From the NCBI GenBank assembly GCA_938005475.1, contig CALLNY010000031.1, positions 64,001 through 128,000 on the forward strand: a stretch of 64,000 nucleotides of DNA, given 5' to 3'. Both the position numbers and the translations under genes were made by a program. The notes beneath the pieces are model-generated. The model was not told the DNA's origin and ran no database searches. It was given only the letters and a program-made list of their open reading frames with translations. Of this stretch, positions 36,901 to 64,000 are shown piece after piece. Source of the stretch: an uncultured Bacteroidia bacterium (GTDB taxonomy: Bacteria; Bacteroidota; Bacteroidia; J057; CALLMJ01). Every line of letters begins with the position of its first letter. The stretch's first letter is position 1.

Positions 36901-37674
36901 GGATCTATTGAAACTCGTAGAATGGGTCCTGTCAAGATGCGTGCCGCATATACTTTACAATTCGCAAGTGGGACAGGTTCCAGCTTCAATTCCTCCAGAG
37001 CTACTTTAGGTTCCATTGAAGGTTTTGCTGTGTTAAGAACTTTGTTACCTTTATCCTTTGACCAACGGCATACTATTACAGGTAATGTGGATTTCCGCTT
37101 CACAGGTGATCAAGTAAAACCTGGCAAGTATTTGAACGGTCCCGGTTTCGGCGGCAATGACTCCACAGGAAAAAGATTTTATCCTTTCAAAAACTTTGGT
37201 GCAAACTTAACCTTTAATTTAGGTTCTGGTACCCCTTATACTCGTAACTCTTTACCTAATACTGCTGATGTGCAATTTGGTATAAATGCTAACAATCAAA
37301 CTGCAGGTACTCCGATGGGTTCCAGATTACCATTCAATCTACGTTTTGATTTAAGAATTGATAAAGATTTCTTCTTTGGTGGTAAAGAAAAAGTCAATGA
37401 AGAAACAGGCCAAAAATCACGCACAAGAGAGTATTCTATGAATGTTCATATTTTATGTTTGAACTTATTGAATACCAAAAACATTATAGGGGTTTATACG
37501 TATTCGGGTTTGCCTGATAATAATGGATTTTTACAATCTGGCATTGGTCAGCAAACGATTGCAACGCAGTTTAGTCCTGCTTCATTTGTGGATTTATACA
37601 CAATTAAAGCGAATAGTCCATTTAATTTTAGTTTACCAAGACGTTTAAGATTAGGAATTATTTTTAACTTTTAA
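33964..37674 (+). CDS. large outer-membrane TonB-dependent-receptor-like protein with N-terminal carboxypeptidase-regulatory-like domain
   Basis: Signal peptide MYKRLQYLILLLLISSSFLFGQ, ...KIKGVVRDNETKETLPFATVKIYLNG... (CarbopepD_reg) and a plug-like ...NVRGARAEGQEYFVDGVRLSG...TGGTPAEYGDATGGIIQITT.... About 1236 aa. A -7-like TATATTTG lies at 33883-33890. Confidence 0.6.
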   Translation, partial: YKRLQYLILLLLISSSFLFGQDAAKIKGVVRDNETKETLPFATVKIYLNGILKGGMNTDDKGEFSFSPVAPGTYDIEVSYSGQITTIKGVVVGPGKTVVREIFVGAVVEMGTVEITGEKLIEADQTASGNTLTKQDLDKLASRSLSSNIATSAGIVQVDDQRGFNVRGARAEGQEYFVDGVRLSGRIALPRAAISQLSVITGGTPAEYGDATGGIIQITTSAPSAEHTGSVEAITSEVFDKYGYNLIAVSGSGPLISKKDSTGKKVTTKLGYFAGFEMESQRDASPSAVGIYKVKPEILKDLKENPLTTSPDGTFFINRANYLTKNDIINEKWKDGALNRAIRANLRLDYQLGKNSFIKIGGNYDNTNQKIWSLTNSLLAQEAFERRKDYTARGYVRFQQVFQDSGSFIKNLFYTIQADYQVFNQNRMDDRHRDKIFNYGHYGSFTSNFAEILFPITPGSEFHDPSISQSTYLGTIGFTDTSYVFSADNTSNPLMANYLKNIYSYLRENPREVFDFTTFSIRTTNTVTSQTDLLILGGIRNGDVPQNIYSLYNPQGTIFGIYSKYNEQMYRLTGQATAEIGNHNFKLGFEFQQRTQRYWGIASRAIWSIMRQLANKHLTTIDYDNPMPVYVNGVFQDVVHYDRKYEPTNQSNFDINLRKALGKPIDGTEFLQIDAMDPSTFSLDMFNADELLNNGASFVTYYGYDFRGNRVGRKADSEFFTNKDFRHQNAYSPSYLAVYLQDKFEVNKMIFNIGVRVDRFDANQKVLKDKFIMRDFYNAGEAANLLGVSLPSNVNPNWAPYVDNINNPSRIIGYRDGSIWYDATGNPTDPRLLAASGKVQPYIKTDTLSIDAFTDYKPQVNIMPRISFSFPISDEALFFAHYDVLTQRPKAAEVGQFTNYLYINQNATESITNPNLKPETTIDYEVGFKQAIGDKMALTLTAFYREMRNMIQILRNNYAYPITYDSYENLDFSTVKGFSGSIETRRMGPVKMRAAYTLQFASGTGSSFNSSRATLGSIEGFAVLRTLLPLSFDQRHTITGNVDFRFTGDQVKPGKYLNGPGFGGNDSTGKRFYPFKNFGANLTFNLGSGTPYTRNSLPNTADVQFGINANNQTAGTPMGSRLPFNLRFDLRIDKDFFFGGKEKVNEETGQKSRTREYSMNVHILCLNLLNTKNIIGVYTYSGLPDNNGFLQSGIGQQTIATQFSPASFVDLYTIKANSPFNFSLPRRLRLGIIFNF

Positions 37675-37678
37675 AAGT

Positions 37679-40600
37679 ATGGCTCAGAAAGTAAAAAAAC
37701 AGTTAATTTGGATATGCTTGATGTGGTTGGGATTAAGCATACAAGCGAAAGAAAATGTGCCTGGTGGTCCAAGGAAGACGGGCGGGGTAGCGAAAACTGC
37801 GGCTGGCTGTGTGCCTTCCAGTGCTTCCGCTCAATTAGATATCAATAACGTAAGAACGTTGTTGCACAATGGTGGTGATATGTGGTGGGATTTAGTGGGC
37901 AATCCCCGCTATGAAGTTCCCAAGGGTTCGGGTAAGCATTCTGCTTTTGCCGCCTCGTTGTGGATTGGTGGGTACGACCAAGCGGGGCAGTTAAGAGTTG
38001 CCGCCCAAACCTATCGGCAAAGTGGTAACGACTTCTATCCAGGTCCTTTAAAGGTTTCCCCCGGTCAAAATTACGGACCTGCTTCAACGGATGATGCTAT
38101 CTGTAAGCAATGGGATAGAATGTACAAAATTACCCGTGCTGAAATCAATCAGTTCAGAGCAGATTTTGCTTCCGGTACAGTAGATTTTTCTAAATATCCT
38201 ACTATTAAAGAATGGCCTGCTATGAATAATGATCCCGACTTCGAAACCTACCTCGCTCCTTTTGTAGATTTTAATAATAATGCTATTTATGACCCTGAAA
38301 CTGGTGGTGATTATCCCAAAGTAGATGGCGATCAAGCAATATGGTGGGTCATAAACGATAAAGGAAATATTCACACGGAATCCGGTGGAGAACAAATTGG
38401 CCTTGAAATTCAAGTGTTAGCTTTTGCATTCGTTGCATCTAACCAATTAAACGATATGACTTTCTATAAACAAAAAGTCATCAATCGTTCAACAAATACT
38501 ATTTTTAACACTTATATTGGGCAGTGGGTAGATGCTGATTTAGGGAATTATTCGGATGATTATGTAGGTTGTGATACGATTAGAGGTTTAGGTTACATCT
38601 ATAACGGGGATAACAATGATGAAACAGCACAAGGTTATGGGACTGTAATACCTTCGTTTGGAGTAGATTTCTTTCAAGGACCTTTGGCAGACCCCAATGA
38701 TGGTATTGACAATGATAAAGATGGCATTGTTGATGAGCCCGGCGAGCGAATCGGCATGGCTAAATTTGTTTATTATGATAATGATTTCACTCCTTATGGG
38801 AATCCATCAAGTCCTAATCATTTTTATCAATATCTGACAGGTTTTTGGAAGGATGGTTCTCCCATGACGGCAGATGGGCAGCGTGGACGTTCTCCTGAAT
38901 CTTCTGCAACTCCGAGAACAGACTACATTTTCCCGGGTTGGCCAGGGGGACCTTGTGCCGCTCCCTCAGGTTGGACCGAAAAATCCGCAGGAAATCCTCC
39001 TTTTGACCGACGTTTCTTAATGTCAGCAGGTCCTTTCACTTTAACTCCTGGTGCTGTCAATGAAATCGTTGTAGGTGCTGTATGGGCGCCCGGCTCTCCT
39101 AATGATGAAGTTGCTTCTTTATGTAAGTTGTTAAAAGCTGATGACATCGCTCAAGCGCTATTTGACAATGATTTCCAGGTTCTTAATGGTCCTGATGCTC
39201 CCGATTTAGTTATCAATGAATACGATAGAGAATTGTTATTAACTTGGGATTATTCTAAAATTGGTTCTATCTCAAATAATTATTTTGAAAATTACTCCGA
39301 AAAAGACCCTGTCTTAGCAAGTTCAGTGCTTCCACCAGGCAAATCCCCATTCTTCAAATTTCAGGGCTACATCGTTTACCAATTGATTGATAGTACGGTG
39401 TCTGCATCAGAACTAACCAATACTGATAAAGCGCGTATAGTATTACAATGCGATATTGAAGATTCTATTAGTACGATAGTTAATAGGACCTCAGAATTAG
39501 TAGCGGGATTATCTGATCCTGTGATTGTTGACCAAATCATGGTTCAAGGGGCAAACAAAGGAATTGTGCGTTCCGTAAGAGTAACAGAAGATTTATTTGC
39601 AGAAGGTACAGACAAACGTTTAGTTAATTATAGACCTTATTACTATACTATTATTGCTTACGCTTATAACGATACTTCTGCGGATGGTAGAAAATTCGTT
39701 CCTGGGAATGGAAATTTCAAGAGGTACAAGGGCACTGCTCATAAAGTAGAGTTTGAAAAATTCGGTACTCGTTTAAATTCTCAATACGGTGATGCCCCCG
39801 AAGTTACTCGTATTCAAGGTAATGGTACAGGAAATAGATTTTTAGATTTAAAAGATGAAGTTAGAAATAATATTTTAACGGGTTCAGTTAACAATTTGGT
39901 CTATCAATCAGGTTTTGCTCCCTTTGATATTAAAGTAGTAAATCCAAAAGAGGTACAAGCCAAGGAGTATATGTTAAGACTTACGGTAGATTCACTAGTA
40001 GAGGATAGAGGGGCAACGCAAGTTCGTGCTGATTGGGTTTTATATGCTAAATCGAATAATGCATGGCAAGAGATTTATAAATCTACTTATGTTTATGATG
40101 TGGCAACGGGCATATCTAATCCTGCTCCTTTAAATGGTGTTGAAAAGGTAGTCAATGGTCATGGGATATCTATTGCAGTGAAGAATCCATTAGATCCAGG
40201 GAATTGGCAAACTGACCGTACAAATGGTTTTATAGGAGCATCTATTGAGTATAGTGACCCTTCAAAGCCTTGGCTTTCGGGGTTAGAAGATTACGAAACT
40301 AATACAATAGACCAATGGAACTGGATTTTGTGTGGTAATGCGCATAAAACCAGTGGTAATCCTAATGTTACAGAGGATTATGGTGCTGAAGGTGCACAAG
40401 CTCCTATGCAATTTTATAGAGATTATAAGGCTTATGACCCTAATGAAGTGTATGAAAAGATTTTAGATAGAACATGGGCTCCCTATATTATGACACGTTC
40501 CTATAATATCAATACGGGGGTTGTTGGTCCGAGAATATCTTACGGTTCCTCTACTAACAACAATGAAGCGTTTATTGGTGATGCAGTGACGCTGGATAAA

Positions 40601-41635
40601 CTTCCAAATGTGGATATTGTTTTAACGAAGGATAAGACTAAATGGTCTCGCTGTGTTGTAATTGAGTCTTCACCAACAAAATCATTAGCGAATGCGGGTC
40701 AGGGAGGTTCTCATCCTATGACGGCGCGTTGGGCAATCTCTAAAGATATTAACGGGAATGAGGAGTCTTCAACATTGGATATCACGACACAAGGTATGTC
40801 TTGGTTTCCGGGTTATGCTATCAATGTTGAAACGGGTAAGCGATTAAATATTTTATTTGCGGAGGCATCATGGTATGCAAACCAGAATGGAGCAGATATG
40901 TTATTTAATCCAACGGCATCTCTCGGCTCCGATTTTAATGCAGTTGGTGGGCGTCATTATATTTATGTAAGTAACACGGAGTATGATGGATGTGCAACGT
41001 TAGCTCAAAGTTTAAGGGTGGGAACTTCCAATGTGGCAACTGGTGCAGATAATGGACATGTCTTTCCTAATGTACCTGGCGTTGGTTCTGTCTCGATTAG
41101 TAGTGCTCACAATACTTTTGCTTGGGTTACTATTGCTATGTTAAGTGATGCTAAATATGCGTTCAAGAAACCCGAAGATATGCCCTGTGATGTTACTATA
41201 AAATTAAGAGTCAATAAAAAATTCTCTAATGACAATCCAATTTATATTTTTGATACGAACAAGTTAGCGGCAAATTTGAATCAGACGGGAATAGCAAAAG
41301 ATGCATTAGAGACAATTCGTGTGGTTCCTAATCCTTATTATGGGCGTTCAGGAACGGGAAAATATCGTTATGAAAATTCCCAAATAGATTCTCGTGTCAA
41401 GATAACGAACTTGCCCCAAAAATGTACTATCAAGATATTTACTTTGAATGGTACTTTAGTAAGGACGTTCAAAAAAGACTCAGAGGTGCCCAATATTGAA
41501 TGGGATTTAAAGAATTCAAGTGGGGTGCCTGTGGCAAGTGGTGTTTATATAATCCATGTAGATGCAGGAGAGTTAGGTCAGAAGGTTGTTAAGTTCTTTG
41601 GTATAATGCCTGAGGTAGATTTAACTGCATATTAA
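37679..41635 (+). CDS. large secreted protein (1318 aa) with T9SS-type C-terminal sorting domain
   Basis: Signal peptide. 4-nt gap from the upstream gene. C-terminus ...IRVVPNPYYG...ASGVYIIHVDAGELGQKVVKFFGIMPEV resembles a type-A CTD with insertions. No other domain recognised by eye. Confidence 0.5.
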   Translation: MAQKVKKQLIWICLMWLGLSIQAKENVPGGPRKTGGVAKTAAGCVPSSASAQLDINNVRTLLHNGGDMWWDLVGNPRYEVPKGSGKHSAFAASLWIGGYDQAGQLRVAAQTYRQSGNDFYPGPLKVSPGQNYGPASTDDAICKQWDRMYKITRAEINQFRADFASGTVDFSKYPTIKEWPAMNNDPDFETYLAPFVDFNNNAIYDPETGGDYPKVDGDQAIWWVINDKGNIHTESGGEQIGLEIQVLAFAFVASNQLNDMTFYKQKVINRSTNTIFNTYIGQWVDADLGNYSDDYVGCDTIRGLGYIYNGDNNDETAQGYGTVIPSFGVDFFQGPLADPNDGIDNDKDGIVDEPGERIGMAKFVYYDNDFTPYGNPSSPNHFYQYLTGFWKDGSPMTADGQRGRSPESSATPRTDYIFPGWPGGPCAAPSGWTEKSAGNPPFDRRFLMSAGPFTLTPGAVNEIVVGAVWAPGSPNDEVASLCKLLKADDIAQALFDNDFQVLNGPDAPDLVINEYDRELLLTWDYSKIGSISNNYFENYSEKDPVLASSVLPPGKSPFFKFQGYIVYQLIDSTVSASELTNTDKARIVLQCDIEDSISTIVNRTSELVAGLSDPVIVDQIMVQGANKGIVRSVRVTEDLFAEGTDKRLVNYRPYYYTIIAYAYNDTSADGRKFVPGNGNFKRYKGTAHKVEFEKFGTRLNSQYGDAPEVTRIQGNGTGNRFLDLKDEVRNNILTGSVNNLVYQSGFAPFDIKVVNPKEVQAKEYMLRLTVDSLVEDRGATQVRADWVLYAKSNNAWQEIYKSTYVYDVATGISNPAPLNGVEKVVNGHGISIAVKNPLDPGNWQTDRTNGFIGASIEYSDPSKPWLSGLEDYETNTIDQWNWILCGNAHKTSGNPNVTEDYGAEGAQAPMQFYRDYKAYDPNEVYEKILDRTWAPYIMTRSYNINTGVVGPRISYGSSTNNNEAFIGDAVTLDKLPNVDIVLTKDKTKWSRCVVIESSPTKSLANAGQGGSHPMTARWAISKDINGNEESSTLDITTQGMSWFPGYAINVETGKRLNILFAEASWYANQNGADMLFNPTASLGSDFNAVGGRHYIYVSNTEYDGCATLAQSLRVGTSNVATGADNGHVFPNVPGVGSVSISSAHNTFAWVTIAMLSDAKYAFKKPEDMPCDVTIKLRVNKKFSNDNPIYIFDTNKLAANLNQTGIAKDALETIRVVPNPYYGRSGTGKYRYENSQIDSRVKITNLPQKCTIKIFTLNGTLVRTFKKDSEVPNIEWDLKNSSGVPVASGVYIIHVDAGELGQKVVKFFGIMPEVDLTAY

Positions 41636-41649
41636 ACGAAGCACAAGCA

Positions 41650-42717
41650 ATGAAAAATATAGCAATAATTATTTTGGGGGTGATATTAAGTTCTCCGTTT
41701 TTAAAAGCTGGTAATCCCGAAAGGGCGGGTCAGGCGGGAGCAACGCAATTACTGATAAATCCATGGGCTCGTAACACGGGCGTACATGGTATCAATACGG
41801 CTAATGCTTATGGGATTGAGTCTGTGATTAATAATCCTGCTGGATTAGCAAAAACTAAGAGAACAGAACTCATATTTTCTCATACTAGGTATTTGGTTGG
41901 ATCTGACATCAATTTAAACACATTTGGTATATCTCAAGGTCTTAAAAAGGGGGGAGTACTTGGTTTATCGGTTGTTTCCTTTGATTTGGGGGAATTTGAG
42001 CGAACTACTATAGATCAGCCGGATGGTACTTTAGGTACTTTTAGGCCTACTTTCTTAAATATAGGTATATCATATGCAAAAACTTTCGTAGAGGATAGGA
42101 TTTATGTAGGTTTTACTACAAGACTTATACATGAGTCTATAACAGATGTTTCTGCGAATGGTGTTGCATTTGATGCGGGAGTGCAATATACTGATAAGGA
42201 TGGTAAATTTAGAATAGGTGTTGCATTAAAGAATGTGGGTCCTGAAATGCGATACTCGGGGGATGGTTTAACGCAAAGAGCTAATTTAGGGGGTCCTAAT
42301 AGCAGATTTACAAGTAATGTTTCTACGATAGCATCTAAATTTGAGTTACCTACTCAACTCAATATCGGGGCTTCGTATGAATGGAGTTTGGGTGGGGATT
42401 CTGTTTCAACTATTCATACAATTTTACCAATGATAAATTTTACTGCGAATGCATACGCAAGAGATCAAATTGGTGCGGGTGCGGAGTATCGTTTTAAGAA
42501 ATATTTTATGTTTAGAGCGGCATATGTGTGGGAAAAAGGAATAACTAATCCAGAGGAGAGAATAAATGTCTATACAGGTATTGCTTTTGGTGCTACGGTT
42601 GAAATTCCGTTCAAATCGGGGGATGGGCGTTATTCTTCTTTTGGATTGGATTATAGTTATAGAACAACAAATCCTTTTCAAGGTACACATTCTATTGGTT
42701 GTAGAGTAAATTTATAG
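41650..42717 (+). CDS. T9SS-associated outer-membrane beta-barrel protein (PorV/PorQ or PorP/SprF-like)
   Basis: Signal peptide, ...NAYGIESVINNPAGLA... (the NPA motif region seen in PorP/SprF and PorV families), beta-barrel-like alternation and aromatic C-terminus. 14-nt gap after the CTD protein. Confidence 0.45.
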   Translation: MKNIAIIILGVILSSPFLKAGNPERAGQAGATQLLINPWARNTGVHGINTANAYGIESVINNPAGLAKTKRTELIFSHTRYLVGSDINLNTFGISQGLKKGGVLGLSVVSFDLGEFERTTIDQPDGTLGTFRPTFLNIGISYAKTFVEDRIYVGFTTRLIHESITDVSANGVAFDAGVQYTDKDGKFRIGVALKNVGPEMRYSGDGLTQRANLGGPNSRFTSNVSTIASKFELPTQLNIGASYEWSLGGDSVSTIHTILPMINFTANAYARDQIGAGAEYRFKKYFMFRAAYVWEKGITNPEERINVYTGIAFGATVEIPFKSGDGRYSSFGLDYSYRTTNPFQGTHSIGCRVNL

Positions 42718-49441: not shown

Positions 49442-52400
49442 ATGATGAAGGCTTGTCTAATTCTAAAGCTATCTATATTGATTATAGGAATAGTTCATTC
49501 GCAAAACAGTTTTTATACTAAACATTTTAATCCAAAAGAATATAATGCGGCACCAATAATATGGAATATTCAACAAGATGCAAGGGGGCTATTATTTATG
49601 GCTAATAATAAAGGAGTTCTGATTTTTGATGGTTCCTGGAAGCTCATACCTACTCCAACACCAGTACGTTCCTTGTTTATTACTAAGAGTAATCAAATTT
49701 TAGTGGGTTGCAAATCGGATTTTGGTATTCTCGATTATCAGAAAAATGGTTCTTATTACTATAAATCTTGGCGAACTTTTCTGAATAAACAAGACCAACT
49801 TCTCATTAAAGATGTAGAAAAAATTTATCAAAATGCGGATGCTACGGTTTATATTACGGATAATGTGGTTTTTCGTGCGGTGGATAATGGGCAGATTAAG
49901 AACTTTCAGAAATTTGTTTTAGAGGATAGAGTGTTAGGATCAGGAATGGTTAATAATAAAATATGGATTAACATCAATGGTAAGGGTTTGCATGAGGTGG
50001 ATAGAGAGTTAAAACCTGTGCCTGGTGGGGGTATCTTTAAAGACCAAGAGATTTCTGGAATAACCCAAAATATCAGTGGGAATTATTATATTGCTACTTA
50101 TGAAGGGAATTTATACGTTTATGATGGCAATTTTCGTGTTATCAACACCAGTGCAGATGCCTATTTAAAAGTAAATAAAATTTACGATATAACTGCAGTG
50201 GGAGATAATATAGGGATTGCTACCATGAAGGGTGGTGCTGTCTATGTAAATAGAAAGGAAAATTTAGCTTATTTTTTTAATAAAGAAAATGGTTTCCCAG
50301 ATAATGATATGTATTCTATCTTCTCAGATAGAGAAAACAATTTGTGGTTAGGACATGGAAAAGGGCTTTCGAAAGTTGGGATTGATATTCCCGTCAAGGT
50401 TTATACTGCTTTGCATGGGTTACAAGGGAGAATATCTGATATTTTACATGTAAATGGTATTACTTATGTTTCAACTTCGCAGGGGGTATTTTATATAAAG
50501 AATAACAAAGTGGAGCGAGTAGGTGGAATTACGAGTGAGGCGTGGTATCTACTTAATCTTAATAATAGTGTTTTAGTAGCAACGAATCAAGGGGTTTTTG
50601 ATATCACAGGAGGCAGTACAAAACCTGTTGTGTCCAATGATTACACCGTAAAAATTATACCTTCTGTCCAGAATAATTATGCTTATGTTTTAGCTTTACC
50701 GGGACTTTATAGAATCAAAAATGAAGCAGGTTGGAAACAAGAAAAAAAATTTAATGAAGTAAAAATGGAGTTGAACTCGGTTGAAGAGGAGAGTGAGGGT
50801 AAATTATGGGCAGGAACAGCTGTTCAGGGGGTTTTTTTACTTGAAATAAGTGATGCCGTTAAAATTTCTCGGTATGACACCAGTGCAGGTCTTCCTGAAG
50901 GTAGTATATCCGTTTTTAAGTATCAATCTAAAATTTATTTTAAATCTAAAGCAGGAATTTATCATTTTCAAAATAACCGCTTTCAGATTCATAATGAGTT
51001 AACCAATTTATTGAAGGATTTTGATTTTGATATTGTTAATGATAAAATATGGATAAAAAATGATGCGGGTTATATTGCATTGAATAATGGGCAACTAGAT
51101 TCTATAGGTTATCATAACATACTACAACAAAAACCTGATATCGGTTTTGCAACAGATAATATGGTTTTTCTGGGGTTTGCAGACGTATTATTGATTGCTC
51201 AAAAACAAAATTCCATTTCTAGTACTTTCCAGTGTTTTATTAGAGAGGTTAAAATTGGTAAAGATTCTGTATTCTTTGGAGGTAACTACCTTAACAAAGA
51301 GGGTTTATTTCAGACTACACAACAAGATAACTTTAAGCCTTCTATTCTATATTCTCAAAATCAAATTCATATAGAACTCGGTACGAATAGTTTTATCAAT
51401 GAATCTGCAAATCGTTACAAATACATTATAGAAGGATTAGGAGAATGGTCTGATTGGCAGGCATCACCTATTATACAGATAAGTGGTATTAGTGAAGGGA
51501 ATTATATTTTAAAAGTTATAGCCAAAAATGCCTATGGGCAAATTAGTGAACCGGTGGTTTTTGAGTTTAAGGTTTTGCCTCCGTGGTATAGGAGTATATG
51601 GACTTATTTGCTGGCGGCATCCTTATTAGCTTTTGCAGTTTATTGGATTATACGTTACAATAGTAAACGATTGGAGGCAGAAAATAGACGTTTGGATAAC
51701 ATTGTAAAAGAAAGAACGGCACAAGTAGAAAAACAAAAACAAGAAATAGAACAGGCTTATAATACGCTCAAGTCTACGCAAGAACAATTAGTACAGTCTG
51801 AAAAAATGGCTTTTTTGGGTCAGTTAGTAGCTGGGATAGCTCATGAAATCAATACGCCTATTGGTGCAGTGAATGCCTCCGCAACTAATATCAATAAAGT
51901 ATTGCCATTAACGATTAGTAAACTGCCTGAAGTCCTCAAAACATTAAATGAAGAAGAGTTAAAACTCTTTAATCAGATGACCGAGCAAATTTTAGGGTTC
52001 AATACTACGCTGACCTCTCGTGAAGAAAGGCAGTTTAAAAAAGAACTTTCACAAAAATTAGAAACAATGGGAGTAGATACTAATTTATCTGCAGAATTAG
52101 TAAAAGTAGGCTTGATTGAGAATATTGAAAAATATAAAGACCTATTTAGTCATCCTAAAGGAGTAGAAATTGTTAATGCAGCGGCGAATTTGGGGAAAAT
52201 CAAGAAAAACGTAGATACTATTGAAACGGCGGTAGCCAAAACTCAAAAGATTGTCTTTGCTTTAAAATCTTATTCTTATAAATCTCATGATGAACAAGCT
52301 GTTGAAATTGATGTTGCTGAAAATATGAGAACAATTCTGACCATTTATGGTAATCAGCTCAAGCATGGTGTAGAGTTAATAACAAACTTTGAGGAGAATC

Positions 52401-52735
52401 TACCGATGATAAAAGGCTGGCCTGATGAATTAAGTCAAGTATGGACGAACATCATTCATAATGCATTGCAAGCAATGGACAATAAAGGGAAACTCCAAAT
52501 AGATATTCTAAAAGAAAATAACGGTATTTTAGTGAAAATAACCGATTCAGGACCGGGTATTCCAAAAGAAATTCAAGATAAAATTTTCCAACCTTTCTTT
52601 ACTACCAAAAAACAAGGTGAGGGTTCTGGTTTAGGGTTAGATATTTGTAGAAAAATCGTTGAAAAACATAAAGGTAAAATATGGGTAGATTCCGAACCTG
52701 GTAGAACTACCTTTTTAGTTTGGTTACCTTTATAA
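49442..52735 (+). CDS. hybrid-architecture sensor histidine kinase with periplasmic two-component-regulator beta-propeller/Y_Y_Y domains
   Basis: Signal peptide, long propeller-like extracytoplasmic region, TM (...YLLAASLLAFAVYWII...), coiled coil, HisKA (...AGIAHEINTPIG...) and HATPase_c (...DSGPGIPKE...GSGLGL...). 1097 aa. Confidence 0.8.
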   Translation: MMKACLILKLSILIIGIVHSQNSFYTKHFNPKEYNAAPIIWNIQQDARGLLFMANNKGVLIFDGSWKLIPTPTPVRSLFITKSNQILVGCKSDFGILDYQKNGSYYYKSWRTFLNKQDQLLIKDVEKIYQNADATVYITDNVVFRAVDNGQIKNFQKFVLEDRVLGSGMVNNKIWININGKGLHEVDRELKPVPGGGIFKDQEISGITQNISGNYYIATYEGNLYVYDGNFRVINTSADAYLKVNKIYDITAVGDNIGIATMKGGAVYVNRKENLAYFFNKENGFPDNDMYSIFSDRENNLWLGHGKGLSKVGIDIPVKVYTALHGLQGRISDILHVNGITYVSTSQGVFYIKNNKVERVGGITSEAWYLLNLNNSVLVATNQGVFDITGGSTKPVVSNDYTVKIIPSVQNNYAYVLALPGLYRIKNEAGWKQEKKFNEVKMELNSVEEESEGKLWAGTAVQGVFLLEISDAVKISRYDTSAGLPEGSISVFKYQSKIYFKSKAGIYHFQNNRFQIHNELTNLLKDFDFDIVNDKIWIKNDAGYIALNNGQLDSIGYHNILQQKPDIGFATDNMVFLGFADVLLIAQKQNSISSTFQCFIREVKIGKDSVFFGGNYLNKEGLFQTTQQDNFKPSILYSQNQIHIELGTNSFINESANRYKYIIEGLGEWSDWQASPIIQISGISEGNYILKVIAKNAYGQISEPVVFEFKVLPPWYRSIWTYLLAASLLAFAVYWIIRYNSKRLEAENRRLDNIVKERTAQVEKQKQEIEQAYNTLKSTQEQLVQSEKMAFLGQLVAGIAHEINTPIGAVNASATNINKVLPLTISKLPEVLKTLNEEELKLFNQMTEQILGFNTTLTSREERQFKKELSQKLETMGVDTNLSAELVKVGLIENIEKYKDLFSHPKGVEIVNAAANLGKIKKNVDTIETAVAKTQKIVFALKSYSYKSHDEQAVEIDVAENMRTILTIYGNQLKHGVELITNFEENLPMIKGWPDELSQVWTNIIHNALQAMDNKGKLQIDILKENNGILVKITDSGPGIPKEIQDKIFQPFFTTKKQGEGSGLGLDICRKIVEKHKGKIWVDSEPGRTTFLVWLPL

Positions 52736-52767
52736 ATTTTTATTTGACAAAATGAAATTTTTTCCTT

Positions 52768-52775
52768 TATATTTG
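52768..52775 (+). promoter_or_regulatory. -7 element TATATTTG upstream of the response-regulator gene
   Basis: Exact TAnnTTTG match 19 nt upstream of the ATG at 52795. Confidence 0.4.
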
Positions 52776-52794
52776 CAATCCAAAGATAAATATA

Positions 52795-53208
52795 ATGGCG
52801 AAAGTAAAAAAAGCTATTCTTTGTGTAGATGATGAGAAAATTGTTTTAGATAGCCTTCAAGAGCAACTTCACGTAGCTTTTGGAGATACATTTCAATATG
52901 AAATTGCAGAGAGCGTGGATGAGGCGTGGGAAGTAATTGATGATTTAGTCAATGAAGGATACGAAATGGTTTTAATCATATCAGATTGGTTAATGCCTCG
53001 TGTAAAAGGTGATGAATTTCTAATTGATGTGCATGAAAGATATCCCGCAACTGTAACGGTTATGTTAACTGGGCAAGCTGACCCTGAGGCTATACAAAAT
53101 GCTTATCAAAATGCTAATTTATATGCGTATATTAAAAAACCCTGGAAAGAAGAAGACTTAATCGCAAAAGTTAAGGAGGCTTTTGGTAAGTTAGGAATGG
53201 ATGTTTAA
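52795..53208 (+). CDS. single-domain response regulator (CheY-like receiver)
   Basis: ...ILCVDDEKIVLDSLQ...LIISDWLMP...TGQADP...KPW... receiver-domain landmarks. 137 aa. Confidence 0.8.
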   Translation: MAKVKKAILCVDDEKIVLDSLQEQLHVAFGDTFQYEIAESVDEAWEVIDDLVNEGYEMVLIISDWLMPRVKGDEFLIDVHERYPATVTVMLTGQADPEAIQNAYQNANLYAYIKKPWKEEDLIAKVKEAFGKLGMDV

Positions 53209-53217
53209 TCATGCTGA

Positions 53218-54915
53218 ATGAAAAAACTAAATATCCTTTGCGTTGACGATGAAAAAATTATTTTAGATAGTCTACAAGAGCAAATTGTTAATCGTCTCGG
53301 AAAAGAATTTGATTGCGAGCTTGCAGAGGGGGGAGAAGAAGCATTGGAATTAATACAGGATATTCTTTCGGATAAGGGGGATATTGCTGTGGTTATCTCC
53401 GACCAACTCATGCCAGGTATGACAGGTGACGAGTTTTTGATTAAAGCTCATGCTCTTATACCTAATACTCCCAAGATATTGCTTACGGGTCAAGCAGGTA
53501 TTGATGCAGTAAAAAATGCTATCAATAAAGCAAGACTATATCGCTATGTAAATAAACCATGGGAAGAAAATGATTTAATGCTTACTATTGAAGAAGCCGC
53601 AAGAGCATATCAAAGACACTTACAAATGCAGGAGTATAATAGGCTTCTTCGAAATCTTAACAAAGCAAGCCAAGAAATCTCCGGAGAAATTGATTATCAA
53701 TTGTTAGTGAATAAACTTATGACTAATGTGGTCCTAACAATTGGTACTGAAACGGGTTATTTGCTTACTAGTAATAATCAAAAATTGAAATTAGAAGCCG
53801 CTTATGCTCTCTCTCATAAAGAATTTGAATGGATTTCTAATGAAATAAAAAATAATTATGAAGAATTTAATCATCAAATAAGCCAAAAGTTAGTTAAGTT
53901 GATTGAAGGTGATGCCCCTGAACATACTTTTGTTGCTCCGATAACCAAGAAAGGTAAAAATCTAGGATTTATATTATTAGAAAATAAAAACACAAAAACT
54001 GCTTTTAATGCTTATCAAAAGGAGGTTATACAGATGCTTGCTTCTCAAGCCGCAATTTCACTTGATAATTCCACTCTTTACAAGCGAATTGAAGAGCGTA
54101 ATAAGCAATTGGAGGAAACCAAGAAAATAATTGAAGAAAAAAATAAAGATATCCTTGACTCCATACGATATGCAAGGAGAATTCAAGAGGCTATAATGCC
54201 TGAAAAAGAATTACTGAACATTTACTTTCCAGAATCTTTTATTTTTTATCAACCTAAAGATATAGTATCAGGAGATTTTTATTGGTTTTTAGAAAAGTAT
54301 CATAAATTTTTTATTGCCGCTGTAGATTGCACGGGACATGGCGTGCCGGGTGCCTTTATGTCGGTAATCGGTAGTAATTTATTAAATCAAATCTTGAATG
54401 AATATTCTATTTTAGAGCCAGAAGCTATTTTAGATCATCTCAATTTTAGGGTACAAGCCGCCCTTAAACAAGACCAAAACGCAGAAACAAAAGATGGAAT
54501 GGACGTTGCCTTTTGTAGTATTGACCAAGAGAATGATTTATTACAATATGCAGGAGCTAATCGTCCTTTATGGCTTGTAAGAAATGGAGAAATAATTAAG
54601 TATGAAGCAGATAAAATCCCTATTGGTGGAGGGCAATTTGGGCATATGTCATATAAGGGGCATACTATACCCGTACAGGAAGGAGATATCATTTATATTT
54701 TTACTGACGGTATCGTAGACCAATTCGGCGGTGAACAAAATAAAAAATTTACTTCTAAGCGTTTTGCGGATTTAATTCTTTCTATTAGCCATCTTTCTAT
54801 GCAAGAACAAATGCAAAACATAAAAAATACTTTTATGGAATGGAAAGGAAAAGAAGAGCAAACCGATGACGTGCTAGTTATAGGTATTCGATATAATTCT
54901 TCTTCAAACGATTAA
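53218..54915 (+). CDS. response regulator receiver fused to GAF-like region and PP2C/SpoIIE-type serine phosphatase
   Basis: N-terminal receiver (...ILCVDDEKIILDSLQ...VISDQLMPGMTGDEF...) and C-terminal ...IVSGDFYWFLEK...AAVDCTGHGVPGAFMSVIG...TDGIVDQFGG...DDVLVIGIRY, closely paralogous to the PP2C domain at 12390-14348. Confidence 0.8.
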   Translation: MKKLNILCVDDEKIILDSLQEQIVNRLGKEFDCELAEGGEEALELIQDILSDKGDIAVVISDQLMPGMTGDEFLIKAHALIPNTPKILLTGQAGIDAVKNAINKARLYRYVNKPWEENDLMLTIEEAARAYQRHLQMQEYNRLLRNLNKASQEISGEIDYQLLVNKLMTNVVLTIGTETGYLLTSNNQKLKLEAAYALSHKEFEWISNEIKNNYEEFNHQISQKLVKLIEGDAPEHTFVAPITKKGKNLGFILLENKNTKTAFNAYQKEVIQMLASQAAISLDNSTLYKRIEERNKQLEETKKIIEEKNKDILDSIRYARRIQEAIMPEKELLNIYFPESFIFYQPKDIVSGDFYWFLEKYHKFFIAAVDCTGHGVPGAFMSVIGSNLLNQILNEYSILEPEAILDHLNFRVQAALKQDQNAETKDGMDVAFCSIDQENDLLQYAGANRPLWLVRNGEIIKYEADKIPIGGGQFGHMSYKGHTIPVQEGDIIYIFTDGIVDQFGGEQNKKFTSKRFADLILSISHLSMQEQMQNIKNTFMEWKGKEEQTDDVLVIGIRYNSSSND

Positions 54916-54916
54916 A

Positions 54917-55576
54917 TTATATAGTAGTATTATCAATTGGGTTTGTTTTAGATTTTATATTCAGTAGGGGTTTTGTTTGTTTTTCATTTTTGGGGTTTTG
55001 TGGGGAAGAATCGTTTTGTATTGCATTTAATTTAGCTTGTTTTTTAGCTAACTCATATTCTTGCCATTCTTTTCTTTTTATTTCGGCTTGTTCTGCGGTA
55101 ATGTTTTCCCAATGAAAATTCATTTCTGATAATTGGGTGGTCGGATAGTCATAATTTGAGGTCATAACCAGGCATTCTGTTGGGCAAACTACGGTACAAA
55201 GACCACAAAAACAGCATTTAGCCATATCTATATCAAATTTGGGTAAATACAATTTCTTTTTTGTTCCATCAGAAGTAACTCCTAAATCTTCAATGGAGCG
55301 AATAGTTTCAATTGTAATGCAATTAACAGGGCATATTCTTGCACATTGATCACAGCCTATACAATCTTCAATATCCAGATGTAACTGATATCTACCAATA
55401 TCCGGAACAGGAATTTGCTCTCTTGGATATTTAATGGTTACTAAACCTTCTTTTTCTTGGAAGAAGTTTGGGCTTTCTATGGAACTTGGTGCTTTTCTGG
55501 TATTCAGTTTTTTTAGATGCTGAAAAGTTAATAATAGCCCTGACCATAGCTTAGAAAGGTAACTTAGCCATTTCAT
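54917..55576 (-). CDS. nuoI: NADH-quinone oxidoreductase subunit I (2x[4Fe-4S]) with C-terminal K/E-rich extension
   Basis: ...VTIKYPREQIPVPDIGRYQLHLDIEDCIGCDQCARICPVNCI...CCFCGLCTVVCPTECL... gives the NuoI N-terminal motif and two ferredoxin-type Cys clusters. Confidence 0.7.
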   Translation of the reverse strand: MKWLSYLSKLWSGLLLTFQHLKKLNTRKAPSSIESPNFFQEKEGLVTIKYPREQIPVPDIGRYQLHLDIEDCIGCDQCARICPVNCITIETIRSIEDLGVTSDGTKKKLYLPKFDIDMAKCCFCGLCTVVCPTECLVMTSNYDYPTTQLSEMNFHWENITAEQAEIKRKEWQEYELAKKQAKLNAIQNDSSPQNPKNEKQTKPLLNIKSKTNPIDNTTI

Positions 55577-56685
55577 ATTTTGGGATGCTTTACGATATAA
55601 TTTACAATCCAGTCTTTAAGTTCATTTACATGGATATTTTCAAGAGTAGAAATGAACATTTTGTCTATGCAAGGGATAGCGTTTGTGAGGATTTCTATAT
55701 CTGCTATTTGTTCAGGGGAAAGCAAGTCAGTTTTATTAAGCACAAGCAGGATAGGTAGAGTATGAGCATCTAAACTTTGTAGTGTTTTTTGAACGGTTTC
55801 TATATGTTGCATCCAATTAGGATGACTGATATCTACTACATGAAGTAATAGGTCTGCATTTTTGACTTCCATTAAAGTACTTTTAAAGGATTCTATAAGA
55901 TGGTGAGGTAGTTTTTTGATAAAACCGACCGTATCCGATAAAAGAAATTCAGTTTGTTTCCAAACTACTTTTCTTGTTGTGGTATCTAATGTTGCGAATA
56001 ATTTATTTTCTGATAGTACCTTTGATTTGGCTATTAAGTTCATTAGAGAGGATTTTCCTGCATTCGTATAACCTACCAAAGTAACACGAAATTGGCTTTC
56101 TCTTTTTTTTCGTTGAACTTCCGAAATTTTCTCAATATTTTTAAGTTCATTTTTTAGTTGAGCTATCCGATTGCGAATTAAACGTTTATCAGTTTCTAGT
56201 TCTTTTTCTCCTGCACCTGATTTAGAACCTATACCTCCTCTTTGCCTTTCTAGGTGTGTCCACATACGAGTTAATCGGGGTAACATGTATTGTAATTTCG
56301 CTAACTCAACTTGTACTTTGGCTTGGGAGGTTTTTGCATTATTAGAGAAAATTTCAAGAATTAAAAGGCTTCTATCCATAATTTTACATTTCAGTACTTT
56401 TTCAAGATTTTTGGTTTGAGAAGGAGTCAAGTCATCATCAAAGATGCTGATATCAACTTGATTTTCTAAAATAAATTGAGCGATTTCTTTGGATTTTCCT
56501 TTACCAATATAAGTTTTTACATCTGGAACTTTTAGGGTTTGAAGGAATTCTCGTAATACTTTTGCTTGATACGTTTCTACTAATTGTTTTAATTCTTCTA
56601 AATCTTCATTGGCTTTTTGTATATCTGGATTCACTGTGATGAGTATAACTTTGGGTAGTTTTGGGGAGTTATCAATCATATTCAA
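55573..56685 (-). CDS. hflX: GTPase HflX
   Basis: HflX N-terminal domain and G-domain ...VTLVGYTNAGKSSLMN...DTVGF...LNKTD... Confidence 0.8.
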   Translation of the reverse strand: MNMIDNSPKLPKVILITVNPDIQKANEDLEELKQLVETYQAKVLREFLQTLKVPDVKTYIGKGKSKEIAQFILENQVDISIFDDDLTPSQTKNLEKVLKCKIMDRSLLILEIFSNNAKTSQAKVQVELAKLQYMLPRLTRMWTHLERQRGGIGSKSGAGEKELETDKRLIRNRIAQLKNELKNIEKISEVQRKKRESQFRVTLVGYTNAGKSSLMNLIAKSKVLSENKLFATLDTTTRKVVWKQTEFLLSDTVGFIKKLPHHLIESFKSTLMEVKNADLLLHVVDISHPNWMQHIETVQKTLQSLDAHTLPILLVLNKTDLLSPEQIADIEILTNAIPCIDKMFISTLENIHVNELKDWIVNYIVKHPKI

Positions 56686-57073
56686 AATGAATGATTTGTT
56701 GAATTTCGGGGGATAAACTTTTTGCTACGGGGCAGTTTCGTGCCGCATTTTCTAGGATAATTTTTTGTTTATCCGTTAAATTTCCTGTGATTTTGATTTT
56801 TGCATGAAGCTCACCTATTCTTCTTGGCTCTGCATACATAATTTTAGTTACTTCACCGTTAATTTGGGCTTCAATAGAATGTTTTTTCATAATTATTCCC
56901 ATAATAGTAAACATACAGGATAACCAAGCCGTTGCAACTAAATCGGTTGGAGAGAATGATTCACCTTTACCCTGATTATCAAGTGGTGCATCTGTAACAA
57001 TCTCGTTACCAGAGAGTACATGCATGCAGATTGTTCGTAAATCTCCTTGATAAACAACTTGTGCAGTAGGCAT
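56672..57073 (-). CDS. OsmC/Ohr-family protein
   Basis: 133 aa ...FSPTDLVATAWLSCMFTIMG...NCPVAKSL.... Typical OsmC-like fold with conserved Cys. Confidence 0.7.
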   Translation of the reverse strand: MPTAQVVYQGDLRTICMHVLSGNEIVTDAPLDNQGKGESFSPTDLVATAWLSCMFTIMGIIMKKHSIEAQINGEVTKIMYAEPRRIGELHAKIKITGNLTDKQKIILENAARNCPVAKSLSPEIQQIIHFEYD

Positions 57074-57076
57074 TTA

Positions 57077-57472
57077 TTAGTTAATGAAAGCAGGGCAAGA
57101 CATAGTAAATTCTGGAATTTTAACGATAAATGTTTTAGCGGTATGCAGATTAATCATTTTATAAATGCCTTCCATCTTACCGAAGGGAGTTTTAAAATGG
57201 GAACCACTGATGTAGGTATATTTTTGATTAGGTTGAAGAATAGGTTGTTCTCCTACTACGCCTAGTCCACTTACATGCCTTTTGTTGAAAAGAGCATCAG
57301 TTATAATCCATTTTCGTGATAGGAGTTGTATAGGAAAGTCATTATGATTTTCAATGGTTATCTCATAAGCAAAAACGAAATTATTTTCATCGATGTTAGA
57401 TTGTTCAGGGACGAAAATAGATCGTACTTGAATGGTTACGCCATTCGTTGTGAGAGTATCTAGATGATTCAT
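57077..57472 (-). CDS. apaG: ApaG (DUF525) domain protein
   Basis: ...[15 protein letters not shown]...[12 protein letters not shown]...[12 protein letters not shown]...[11 protein letters not shown]... matches ApaG. Confidence 0.8.
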
Positions 57473-57951
57473 GCTTTTAATACAGAATGTTCTTTAATAA
57501 TTTTTTCTTGTAAGGTCATTAGAGCGTGGAGGACGGTTTCGGGTCTTGGAGGGCAACCGGGGATATAAATATCTACGGGAATGATGTTGTCAATTCCTTG
57601 CATAACACCATAAACTCTGTGCATACCTCCTGTTGAAGCGCAGGCTCCCATGGCAATACACCATTTAGGGTCAGGCATTTGATCCCATATCCTTTTAACA
57701 GCATGAGACATCTTGTAGGTAGTCCAACCGGCTACTATCATCACATCGGCTTGACGTGGCGAGAAACTGAAACGCTCTGAACCAAAGCGTGCAACATCAA
57801 ATTTAGGACCTGCAAAGGACATCATTTCAATTGCGCAGCATGCTAATCCCATAGGCATCGGCCACAAAGCATTAGCTCTTGCCCAATTCGTGATGGTGTC
57901 TATTGTTGTTGTTATAAAACTTCCCTGTGATAAAACTTTATCTAATGACAT
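57469..57951 (-). CDS. nuoB: NADH-quinone oxidoreductase subunit B
   Basis: ...[13 protein letters not shown]...GACASTGGM...IPGCPPRPE... NuoB [4Fe-4S] N2 cluster motifs. Confidence 0.9.
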
Positions 57952-57976
57952 AACAATCTCTATCTAATTTAATAAT

Positions 57977-58402
57977 TTAATTCCAATCTAAACCACCTTT
58001 TTTTACAACGTAAATATACCCAACAAATAAAATCAACACAAAAGAGAACATTTCAATAAAACCGAATATCCCTAATTGTTTATATTGAACAGCCCAAGGA
58101 TACATAAAGATAATTTCTATATCAAAGAGTATAAAAAGCATAGCTATTAAATAGAACTTAATAGAAAAGCGGTCTCTTGCTGTACCGACTGGGTCCATCC
58201 CACTTTCATAAGGCATTACTTTTCTTTCTGTAAAACGTTTTCTTATCAATATGTTTTGTAAATTGCTTAATATCAAGGCTAAACCTAAACCTATTGCAAT
58301 CATGATGAACGCGCCGTAGTACTCTTGCATACGTTTTGAAAATGGTGCTAAATTATAATTCAAACATGGGTTTTGCAAATATTGTTCAAAATAATTTTTC
58401 AT
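57977..58402 (-). CDS. nuoA: NADH-quinone oxidoreductase subunit A
   Basis: Three TM helices with ...YESGMDP... and ...ILFDIEIIFMYPWAV... signatures. Confidence 0.85.
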   Translation of the reverse strand: MKNYFEQYLQNPCLNYNLAPFSKRMQEYYGAFIMIAIGLGLALILSNLQNILIRKRFTERKVMPYESGMDPVGTARDRFSIKFYLIAMLFILFDIEIIFMYPWAVQYKQLGIFGFIEMFSFVLILFVGYIYVVKKGGLDWN

Positions 58403-58476
58403 ATACGTTCAAATTAATTTTAATCTATTGATTTTTAATTTATTACAAATAATATAACATTTTTTAATATTATATT

Positions 58477-58512
58477 GTTGCAAATGCAAATAAGTTGCAT
58501 TATTTTTGCAAC
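58477..58512. promoter_or_regulatory. inverted repeat GTTGCAAA-N20-TTTGCAAC in the nuoA/lipoprotein divergent intergenic region (candidate operator). Overlaps a TATTTTTG -7 element at 58501-58508.
   Basis: Direct reading: 8-bp perfect inverted arms. The inner sequence is also partially symmetric (TGCAAATGCAA / TTGCATT). Confidence 0.3.
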
Positions 58513-62392: not shown

Positions 62393-62725
62393 ATGGGTAT
62401 CACTAAAACAGAACATTTCAGTGAAAATCAAAATACTATCGCAAAACTATTAAAAGCACTAGGTCATCCTGCGCGTATTGCTATCATAGAATATTTACTT
62501 AAAGTAGAGACTTGTATTTGCGGTGATATAGTTAATGAACTACCACTCGCTCAACCTACCATCTCACAACATCTTAAAGAACTAAAAAACGCAGGGTTAA
62601 TCAAAGGGACTATTGAAGGTAACACTATTTGTTACTGCATAGATGGGAATGCTATTCAATATCTTAAAAATTATTTGGAGGATATCTACAAGATACTTCA
62701 ATCACAAAAGAAGAATTGTTGTTAA
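62393..62725 (+). CDS. arsR: ArsR/SmtB-family metalloregulatory transcriptional repressor
   Basis: ...CICGDIVNELPLAQPTISQHLKELKNAGLI... HTH with metal-binding Cys. 110 aa. Confidence 0.85.
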   Translation: MGITKTEHFSENQNTIAKLLKALGHPARIAIIEYLLKVETCICGDIVNELPLAQPTISQHLKELKNAGLIKGTIEGNTICYCIDGNAIQYLKNYLEDIYKILQSQKKNCC

Positions 62726-62736
62726 TAAAAATAGAA

Positions 62737-63201
62737 ATGAAACTATCTGAAGTTAAAGCAATTTTACCGAGATTAGAAAGCGTAACGTTTAAATTACCTA
62801 ATGGAAATTTCGTTCCTGAACATTTTCATGTAACAGAAGTGGGCATAATCCAAAAAAAATTTATTGACTGCGGCGGTACTATCCGTAACGAGTATAAGAT
62901 AAACTTTCAATTGTGGTATGCCCAAGACTTTGAACACCGCCTAAGTGCCTCTAAACTGCTCAAAATTATTGAACTTTCCGAAAAACAACTGGATATTCAA
63001 GATGGTGAAATAGAGGTGGAATATCAAGGAGAAACCATAGGAAAATATGATTTAAGTTTTGATGGAAAACATTTTGTATTAGTTAGTAAGCATACTAATT
63101 GTTTGGCATTAGGGTATTGTATACCAAACGTTAAACCAAAAATCAAATTATCGGATTTAAATAAAACGAAGCGTTGTAATCCTAACACAGGTTGTTGTTA
63201 A
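62737..63201 (+). CDS. arsenic-operon-associated hypothetical protein (DUF6428-like) with C-terminal Cys cluster
   Basis: Sits between arsR and the ACR3 gene, as DUF6428 proteins do in Bacteroidota ars operons. C-terminal ...KRCNPNTGCC. Confidence 0.45.
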   Translation: MKLSEVKAILPRLESVTFKLPNGNFVPEHFHVTEVGIIQKKFIDCGGTIRNEYKINFQLWYAQDFEHRLSASKLLKIIELSEKQLDIQDGEIEVEYQGETIGKYDLSFDGKHFVLVSKHTNCLALGYCIPNVKPKIKLSDLNKTKRCNPNTGCC

Positions 63202-63217
63202 TTAAAAATACAAAAAA

Positions 63218-64000
63218 ATGGGAAAATTTGAAAAATATCTAACTTTATGGGTTTTAATATGCATTATAGCAGGTATATTGATAGGGAATGTAGCGGGAGA
63301 AAGTATCGCCACAATCAGTAAATGGGAGTTTTATTCTGTGAACATACCTGTTGCTATACTGGTTTGGTTGATGATATACCCAATGATGGTACAAATAGAT
63401 TTTTCTTCATTGAGGAATGTATCAAAGAATTGGAGAGGTCTTGGCTTGACAGTTACAGTGAATTGGTTAATTAAACCTTTTACGATGGCATTCTTTGCAT
63501 GGCTCTTTTTTAGCAAGCTATTTGCTGCATTTTTAAATCCAGAACTAAGTGAACAATATATTGCAGGGGCTATTTTGTTAGGTGCCGCTCCCTGTACGGC
63601 TATGGTCTTTGTTTGGTCTTATCTTACGAACGGTGATGCTAATTATACCTTGGTGCAAGTATCGGTTAATGATTTAATTATTTTGATAGCATTTATTCCT
63701 ATTGTAAGATTTTTATTGGGGGTTACTAATATAGAAATTCCCTATGGTGTTTTAAGTACCTCGGTTGTTGTTTTTGTTGTAATTCCTTTGATAGCAGGTT
63801 TTTTATCTCATAAGCTACTCATAAAATATAAAGGAGAAACATGGTTCAAAACGCAATTTTTAACTGCTCTTAAACCATTATCTATTGTAGCCTTACTAAC
63901 CACTTTAATTTTGATATTTGCTTTTCAAGGGAATAGAATCACCCAAAAGCCTATAGATATTTTGTTGATAGCAGTTCCTTTGACACTTCAAACGTATTTT
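63218..64000 (+). CDS. arsB: ACR3-family arsenite efflux transporter (3' partial; runs off the window)
   Basis: ATG at 63218 gives MGKFEKYLTLWVLICIIAGILIGN...LLGAAPCTAMVFVWSYLTNGD... (ACR3 signature with conserved Cys). Not in the ORF track because no stop occurs in the window. Confidence 0.8.
   Translation, partial: MGKFEKYLTLWVLICIIAGILIGNVAGESIATISKWEFYSVNIPVAILVWLMIYPMMVQIDFSSLRNVSKNWRGLGLTVTVNWLIKPFTMAFFAWLFFSKLFAAFLNPELSEQYIAGAILLGAAPCTAMVFVWSYLTNGDANYTLVQVSVNDLIILIAFIPIVRFLLGVTNIEIPYGVLSTSVVVFVVIPLIAGFLSHKLLIKYKGETWFKTQFLTALKPLSIVALLTTLILIFAFQGNRITQKPIDILLIAVPLTLQTYF

Follow-up and report, generated by a model that had tools for sequence, protein, structure and literature searches.

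The six-gene block

The sequence analysed here, referred to as the window, is a stretch of 64,000 nucleotides (nt) from an uncultured Bacteroidia bacterium (contig CALLNY010000031.1, positions 64,001 to 128,000). The list of its open reading frames (ORFs) contains six consecutive minus-strand ORFs at 54917-58402 in the order nuoA-nuoB-apaG-osmC-hflX-nuoI. Three of these genes carry the signatures of subunits of NADH:quinone oxidoreductase (Complex I), and apaG, an osmC-like gene and hflX are enclosed between them. Families were assigned by Pfam and NCBIfam profile searches of the ORF translations, in which bit scores were compared with the curated cutoffs, and the positions, strand and family signatures given for the six genes in the original prediction were confirmed. 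The locus is composed of the following features:

57977..58330, minus strand: nuoA, Complex I membrane subunit A; probable coding sequence of 117 amino acids (aa); PF00507
57469..57951, minus strand: nuoB, Complex I subunit B carrying iron-sulphur (Fe-S) cluster N2; 160 aa; TIGR01957
57077..57472, minus strand: apaG, DUF525/ApaG-domain protein; 131 aa; NF003967, PF04379
56672..57073, minus strand: OsmC-family protein; 133 aa; PF02566
55573..56679, minus strand: hflX, ribosome-associated GTPase; 368 aa from the ATG at 56679, alternative TTG start at 56685; TIGR03156
54917..55576, minus strand: nuoI, Complex I 2x[4Fe-4S] subunit (N6a, N6b); 219 aa; TIGR01971, Cys motifs
58331..58505, no strand assigned: AT-rich intergenic stretch separating nuoA from a divergent DUF4625 gene; presumed site of the promoter for the six genes

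NuoA, a small three-helix membrane protein with the Oxidored_q4 domain, matches PF00507 with 124.7 bits (cutoff 23.3) and scores below the narrow cutoffs of the NCBIfam equivalog models. Its start had been placed at 58402, which is probably too far upstream. In the relatives described below (L002, L171-L180 and L188) NuoA is 117 aa long throughout and aligns from about residue 21-25 of the long ORF, and therefore the ATG at 58330 is most likely the start codon. The match of ApaG to NF003967 reaches 142.9 bits (cutoff 106) and that to PF04379 107.3 bits. HflX matches TIGR03156 at the equivalog level with 427.9 bits (cutoff 216.75), its translation contains the G1 (GYTNAGKS), G3 (DTVGF) and G4 (NKTD) motifs, and gene callers choose the 368-aa form. 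For the OsmC-like protein, 48.3 bits were obtained with PF02566 (cutoff 27.5), but the Ohr/OsmC subfamily models remained below their cutoffs (TIGR03561, 27.8 versus 88.85; TIGR03562, 22.5 versus 85.8). Since only the general model is passed, it is assigned to an uncharacterised subfamily of OsmC-fold proteins. Both cysteines are retained, in the motifs LSCMF and RNCPV, and a function as thiol peroxidase or redox protein is probable.

The genes are closely packed, although not as uniformly as had been described. According to the original prediction all six overlap or abut with 4-nt overlaps. Three junctions do overlap, and two of them are of the ATGA type, in which the ATG of apaG lies on the stop codon of nuoB and that of nuoI on the stop codon of hflX. 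The osmC/hflX overlap measures 8 nt with the ATG start and 14 nt with the TTG start of hflX, while apaG and osmC are separated by 3 nt and nuoA and nuoB by 25 nt, the widest gap in the block. The stop codons of nuoI and of a convergent response-regulator/SpoIIE gene lie one base apart, and upstream of nuoA some 100-175 nt of AT-rich sequence are shared with the divergent DUF4625 gene. With no gap above 25 nt and three overlapping junctions, the six genes probably constitute one tightly packed, co-transcribed and partly translationally coupled unit. A scan for terminator-like sites yielded four hits compared to 3.0 expected by chance, none of them between genes of the block. A promoter upstream of nuoA is presumed from the arrangement, because a scan for sigma-70-type promoters gave 16 matches, no excess over the 21.6 expected by chance. 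No match was obtained in an Rfam search of the 64-kb window.

Conservation of the block in one lineage

The original prediction proposed a comparison of synteny with related genomes. When this was performed, the same six-gene order was detected on no fewer than 14 further contigs from independent assemblies (L001, L002, L003, L084, L171-L180, L188), usually with the same flanks. These contigs stem from Logan, ENA, JGI and GenBank metagenome-assembled genome (MAG) assemblies, which represent different samples and assemblers, and their GC content ranges from 30 to 40%. Logan contigs from several runs (L001, L084) encode exactly the proteins of the window. The order is also kept in two MAGs classified in GTDB, L002 (CALLMJ01) and L003 (CAZBPK01), at 71-99% protein identity, and on ten ENA, JGI and Logan contigs (L171-L180) whose NuoB variant belongs to the same 90% cluster. 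Where the latter extend far enough, a DUF4625 gene is found on one side and genes for a response regulator-SpoIIE protein, a response regulator and a histidine kinase on the other. The most distant contig with the block is L188 (40% GC), where identity to the window proteins is 94% for NuoB, 70% for NuoI, 62% for HflX and 55% for ApaG. The next-closest HflX, P0148 on L189 (57% identity), is encoded in an unrelated gene context. Because the order persists out to L188 and is absent around P0148, the block is a stable trait of a distinct lineage of roughly genus-to-family depth. Within the window GC is even across the locus, and no compositional break was observed over 54-59 kb.

The genes converging on nuoI (49442-54915, plus strand) specify a Y_Y_Y/Reg_prop hybrid sensor kinase of 1097 aa, a stand-alone receiver and a receiver-SpoIIE phosphatase of 565 aa. 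This trio is syntenic with the six-gene block wherever a contig of the lineage extends that far, the shortest contigs ending before it.

NuoA, NuoB and NuoI as subunits of Complex I

NuoB of the window exceeds the curated cutoffs of the NuoB family models (TIGR01957, 221.8 versus 142.7; NF005012, 224.8 versus 116; PF01058, 101.4 versus 27), and its residues C38, C39, C104 and C133 align with the N2 ligands C63, C64, C129 and C158 of E. coli. In NuoI, the CxxCxxCxxxCP motifs for N6a and N6b, CIGCDQCARICP and CCFCGLCTVVCP, are present with all eight cysteines, and neither motif varies when the protein is aligned with those of 12 relatives and E. coli. The cluster ligands of both subunits, which had appeared intact at first inspection, are thus complete.

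With 90.8 bits, NuoI scores below the TIGR01971 cutoff of 113.05. Proteins of relatives encoded within complete nuoHIJKLMN operons do so as well (Adhaeribacter L033, 89.8; L008, 84.9; L083, 84.0). The low score is characteristic of the clade and results from an insert located between the Fe-S motifs, which was detected in 13 of 13 aligned clade NuoI proteins. The best matches of the window NuoI are products of Cytophagales nuoI genes flanked by nuoH and/or nuoJ-N, with 45-58% identity over nearly the full length. A Lys/Glu-rich C-terminal tail had been noted in this protein, at roughly 70 aa. It does exist, but comprises about 60 aa and is common to most of the aligned clade relatives. In L004, L005, L011 and L033 the tail is short (about 15-20 residues), and much longer, repetitive tails are found in Flexithrix dorotheae (L013 7956-~9400) and Imperialibacter (L018 8001-~9030), whose whole proteins measure 468 and 342 aa, respectively. 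The long C-terminal extensions of these two and of the 302-aa NuoI from the Spirosomataceae MAG L080 are repetitive and contain KPVFRPKM/KPKFRPKIRPKIKPK-type repeats, and the 60-aa tail of the window protein is a short version of them.

Ratios of nonsynonymous to synonymous substitutions (dN/dS) were calculated pairwise by the Nei-Gojobori method among the window, L002, L003 and L171, with dS of at least 1, essentially saturated, in most pairs. Strong purifying selection was evident for all six genes. Values for NuoB were the lowest (0.009-0.023), those for NuoI were 0.08-0.13 (0.11-0.13 with dS of at least 1), and those for NuoA 0.05-0.10 across pairs (0.05-0.07 versus L002 and L003; not computable for L171 due to saturated dS). 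ApaG, OsmC and HflX together ranged from 0.04 to 0.14, with about 0.11 for ApaG and 0.09-0.14 for OsmC. Among the four sampled members of the lineage NuoB is 97.5-99.4% identical, falling to 94% in the most divergent one, L188, and it stays nearly identical where the neighbouring proteins have diverged to 55-80% identity. Such a pattern is expected of a subunit contacting several partners in a large complex, not of a relic. From these data, nuoA, nuoB and nuoI are best read as genes for genuine subunits of Complex I, a proton-pumping NADH:quinone oxidoreductase.

Search for further nuo genes in the window and the lineage

The window was searched by tblastn with 12 E. coli Nuo proteins (NuoB-NuoN; E. 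coli NuoA was not used) and with NuoH-N of Adhaeribacter, and nuoB and nuoI were the only genes matched. The statement that the core of the gene set is missing between nuoB and nuoI, and that nothing nuo-like follows nuoI, is therefore correct for the 64 kb. Nor was a further nuo gene detected in the 10-kb flanks of the lineage contigs or in the 1-2.5 kb past the window ends that could be reached through exact protein matches.

Candidates for a nuoH gene of the lineage were sought by a protein database search with NuoH of L005 and ranked by AT-rich amino acid composition, identity profile and data source. Five were traced, and all led to other lineages or to contigs without a link to the one analysed. 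P0118 led to L083, a contig with its own HIJKL-TA-MN operon at 37% GC. On that contig (10001-18071) a DUF6364/PIN toxin-antitoxin-like pair interrupts nuoHIJKL before nuoM-nuoN. P0041 (42% GC) and P0017 (41-43% GC) are products of solitary nuoH genes, and P0061 is encoded by a nuoH followed by nuoI (41% GC). The best candidate, P0063 (L190-L194), is likewise encoded by a solitary nuoH, at 34-37% GC, and has its nearest relatives in L004 and L005, as does the NuoI of the window.

Order of nuo genes in the surrounding clade

To place these results in the context of related bacteria, NuoI was used to scan 185,579 species genomes. This revealed 80 loci, two in the MAGs of the lineage and 78 others, mostly from Cytophagales and unclassified Bacteroidia, with 45-58% identity. 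The flanks of the latter were annotated by tblastn with reference Nuo proteins, and the following arrangements were recorded:

Contiguous nuoH-I-J..LMN: 11 of 78 loci
Insertion of ~2 kb between nuoH and nuoI: 14 of 78 loci
No nuoH within 5 kb or more upstream of nuoI: 31 of 78 loci
No nuoJ within 3 kb downstream of nuoI: 9 of 78 loci, including Thermoflexibacter ruber (L040) and a 3.1-Mb Spirosomataceae contig (L080)
nuoI followed by nuoD: 3 of 78 loci, including Raineya orbicola (L057)
Order nuoI-J-H: 2 of 78 loci, L004 and L005, which are among the closest outgroups

Thus, most of the related loci have nuoI detached from nuoH, nuoJ-N or both. A metagenome scan with NuoB, which served for outgroup contexts only, since the 80 loci listed include no member of the lineage, gave further arrangements. 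In the closest JGI relative among the matches listed (L091, 80% identity), nuoAB stand alone on a contig of 136 kb, and on a Bacteroidota-like contig with 74% NuoB identity (L094) nuoABCDEFGH are contiguous. Solitary nuoH genes recur in related metagenomic lineages (L181-L186, L190-L194, L087-L090). Some directly follow a DUF5686/CarboxypepD_reg gene, others are flanked by a Y1-transposase-like gene and ruvC, and they add to the evidence that nuo genes are scattered.

The expectation that Bacteroidota normally encode their nuo genes contiguously therefore fails for this clade, considering the 11 of 78 contiguous loci and the isolated nuoAB of L091. The bacterium of the window is a member of a Cytophagales-like group in which Complex I genes are routinely scattered. 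That a detached nuoI can coexist with a working complex is indicated by Raineya orbicola, where nuoI-nuoD occur without nuoH or nuoJ nearby. This species is a strictly aerobic isolate containing menaquinone-7, and its genome has been reported to encode an NADH dehydrogenase including NuoE and NuoG (PMC5982127). Dispersed Complex I gene clusters have been described in many prokaryotes, and the subunits can all be counted only from a whole genome (PMC3144371).

Interpretation of the locus

The arrangement is very likely a part of a dispersed nuo gene set, in which genuine nuoA, nuoB and nuoI have their partners encoded elsewhere and a local rearrangement has taken place around apaG-osmC-hflX. 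NuoA, NuoB and NuoI would be normal subunits of Complex I, and nuoC, nuoD, nuoH and nuoJ-N, probably also nuoE, nuoF and nuoG, would be located at other chromosomal sites. A rearrangement in the lineage would have placed nuoAB upstream and nuoI downstream of the unrelated housekeeping or stress genes apaG, osmC-like and hflX. Because nuo genes are routinely scattered in the Cytophagales-like group, the subunits that seem to be missing are most likely encoded elsewhere. We infer that the remaining nuo genes exist in this genome, and that a second nuoA/B/I set does not. Of the three explanations offered in the original prediction, a rearranged or split operon is thus the one backed by the contexts of the 78 loci and by nuoAB standing alone in L091. 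The other two, a reduced genome and a repurposed trio, are disfavoured.

Several observations weigh against this interpretation. The analysis covered 64 kb of a contig of 129 kb, and nuoC, nuoD, nuoH and nuoJ-N of this genome or lineage were not recovered by tblastn of the window, in the lineage flanks or among the five candidate NuoH proteins. P0063, the best of these, could not be linked to the lineage, because it originates from samples other than those of the lineage and because the tetranucleotide correlation of L190 with the window, 0.75, is similar to that of lineage members and non-members alike. Co-transcription of the six genes was deduced from their spacing. Finally, conservation of the block down to 55% identity in ApaG exceeds what would be predicted for a recent accidental juxtaposition and makes a functional or regulatory link conceivable.

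Such a link would mean that one or more of ApaG, the OsmC-like protein and HflX cooperate with the Fe-S subunits NuoB and NuoI, for example in their biogenesis, repair or stress-coupled expression, or in assembling the quinone-reduction module of Complex I, repairing it or protecting it against oxidative stress, and that selection keeps the six genes in a translationally coupled operon. Order and tight spacing are indeed maintained to 55% (ApaG) and 62% (HflX) identity and over 30-40% GC, two junctions are of the ATGA type, and all six genes are under purifying selection. However, the association is confined to the lineage. None of apaG, osmC and hflX was found within 8-10 kb of nuoI in the 78 outgroup NuoI loci or of nuoB in the 80 NuoB loci listed (158 outgroup loci together), the context of P0148, the next-closest HflX, is unrelated, and a full-text literature search gave no link between ApaG and NADH dehydrogenase in titles or abstracts. 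Since gene order is highly fluid in this clade, an adjacency restricted to one lineage is expected by drift, and a functional module is considered unlikely. Should the stable co-location of the uncharacterised ApaG with Fe-S subunits of Complex I prove functional, it would provide a first handle on this protein. It could also be envisaged that the rest of Complex I has been lost and that NuoA, NuoB and NuoI are remnants, or form a smaller and different complex. The lack of another nuo gene in the window and in the 10-kb flanks of the lineage contigs, and of a lineage nuoH among the candidate proteins, would fit. Yet the dN/dS values of 0.01-0.02 and the near-identity of NuoB across species are incompatible with a relic, this extreme purifying selection together with the intact cluster ligands speaks against a repurposed trio, the proteins show no divergence from clade orthologues located in full operons, and scattered nuo genes are the norm in this clade. 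In addition, the cluster of the NuoB-type subunit lies, in every known member of the Complex I/group-4 hydrogenase superfamily, at the interface to a NuoD-type partner, with the subunit docked on a NuoH-type membrane protein, and NuoA is not known to act outside Complex I. A relic or repurposed trio is therefore very improbable. A reduced genome is disfavoured by the large sensor kinases, type IX secretion system (T9SS) cargo, the TonB-dependent receptor and the O2-dependent enzymes encoded in the window. As the source is a metagenome-derived contig, an assembly or binning artefact joining unrelated fragments has to be considered as well. But at least 14 further contigs, which come from Logan, ENA, JGI and GenBank MAG assemblies of different samples, show this order and these junctions, so that a chimeric assembly at the locus is excluded. 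Composition is unbroken across 54-59 kb, and the probability of an artefact is practically nil.

The six-gene order is therefore real and ordinary for the clade, and the locus represents one more split Complex I gene set. As a further example of the free dispersal of Complex I genes in Cytophagales-like Bacteroidota it carries little biological weight. In this clade, neither a window without neighbouring nuo genes nor a missed TIGR01971 cutoff should be taken to mean that Complex I has been lost.

Other genes of the window

Outside the block, the window looks like a piece of chromosome from a free-living aerobic member of the Bacteroidota. MiaE (19617-20207, minus strand) and tryptophan 2,3-dioxygenase (30089-30988, plus strand) are O2-dependent enzymes and indicate an aerobic lifestyle. 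Because these enzymes are encoded along with genes typical of free-living Bacteroidota, the genome does not look reduced. For a UbiA-family prenyltransferase gene (982-1854, plus strand), the best NCBIfam matches were archaeal-type (di)geranylgeranylglyceryl-phosphate (DGGGP) synthase-like models (NF009513, 155.9 bits, below the cutoff of 288). Its assignment as a menaquinone prenyltransferase, which would have been evidence for respiration, was rejected, since it matched none of MenA, UbiA and CtaB and resembled DGGGP synthase instead. The gene is possibly part of an ether-lipid-like pathway seen in some Bacteroidota.

At 33934-42717 (plus strand) an ORF for a 1246-aa TonB-dependent-receptor-like protein is followed by a 1318-aa ORF without a Pfam match and by a PorV-like ORF. 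Likeness of the 1318-aa product to the T9SS PorZ/sorting region is confined to its last ~70 aa, and the three genes may constitute a T9SS-associated surface module. A TPR-SpoIIE protein is encoded at 12390-14348. An arsenic-resistance cluster at 62393-64000 (plus strand), extended by L085, comprises genes for an ArsR-type helix-turn-helix protein, a DUF6428 protein, an ACR3/SBF-family transporter and an ArsC of the low-molecular-weight phosphatase type.

Comparison with known systems

Contiguous nuo operons are known in two forms, with 14 genes in E. coli and Flavobacteriia and with the 11 genes nuoABCDHIJKLMN in Bacteroides. NuoA, NuoB and NuoI of the window are orthologous to the products of such operons, and NuoB shares 55% identity and the same cluster ligands with its E. 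coli counterpart. The integrity of the operon has been lost in the lineage of the window, while L094 retains nuoABCDEFGH. The small Fe-S subunits of group-4 membrane-bound [NiFe] hydrogenases and of Mbx/Ech-type modules belong to the same superfamilies as NuoB and NuoI. The best NCBIfam matches of the window proteins, however, are the NuoB and NuoI models and not those for hydrogenase small subunits or HycF/HyfH. Moreover, the block contains nuoA, a gene which to our knowledge is not found with these hydrogenases, and no gene for NuoD or a hydrogenase large subunit is adjacent.

The closest resemblance is to dispersed gene sets, of which the cyanobacterial ndh genes are the classic case. Two properties set the window apart from other dispersed nuo sets. 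The placement of nuoAB and nuoI around apaG-osmC-hflX was not seen outside its lineage, and its nuoI adjoins neither nuoH, nuoJ nor nuoD. The insert in NuoI is common to all aligned members of the Cytophagales sets including the window, and the Lys/Glu-rich tail is present in most of them. As in Raineya orbicola, Thermoflexibacter ruber and Flexithrix dorotheae, genes for canonical subunits would be distributed over several loci, with nuoI detached from nuoH and nuoJ-N.

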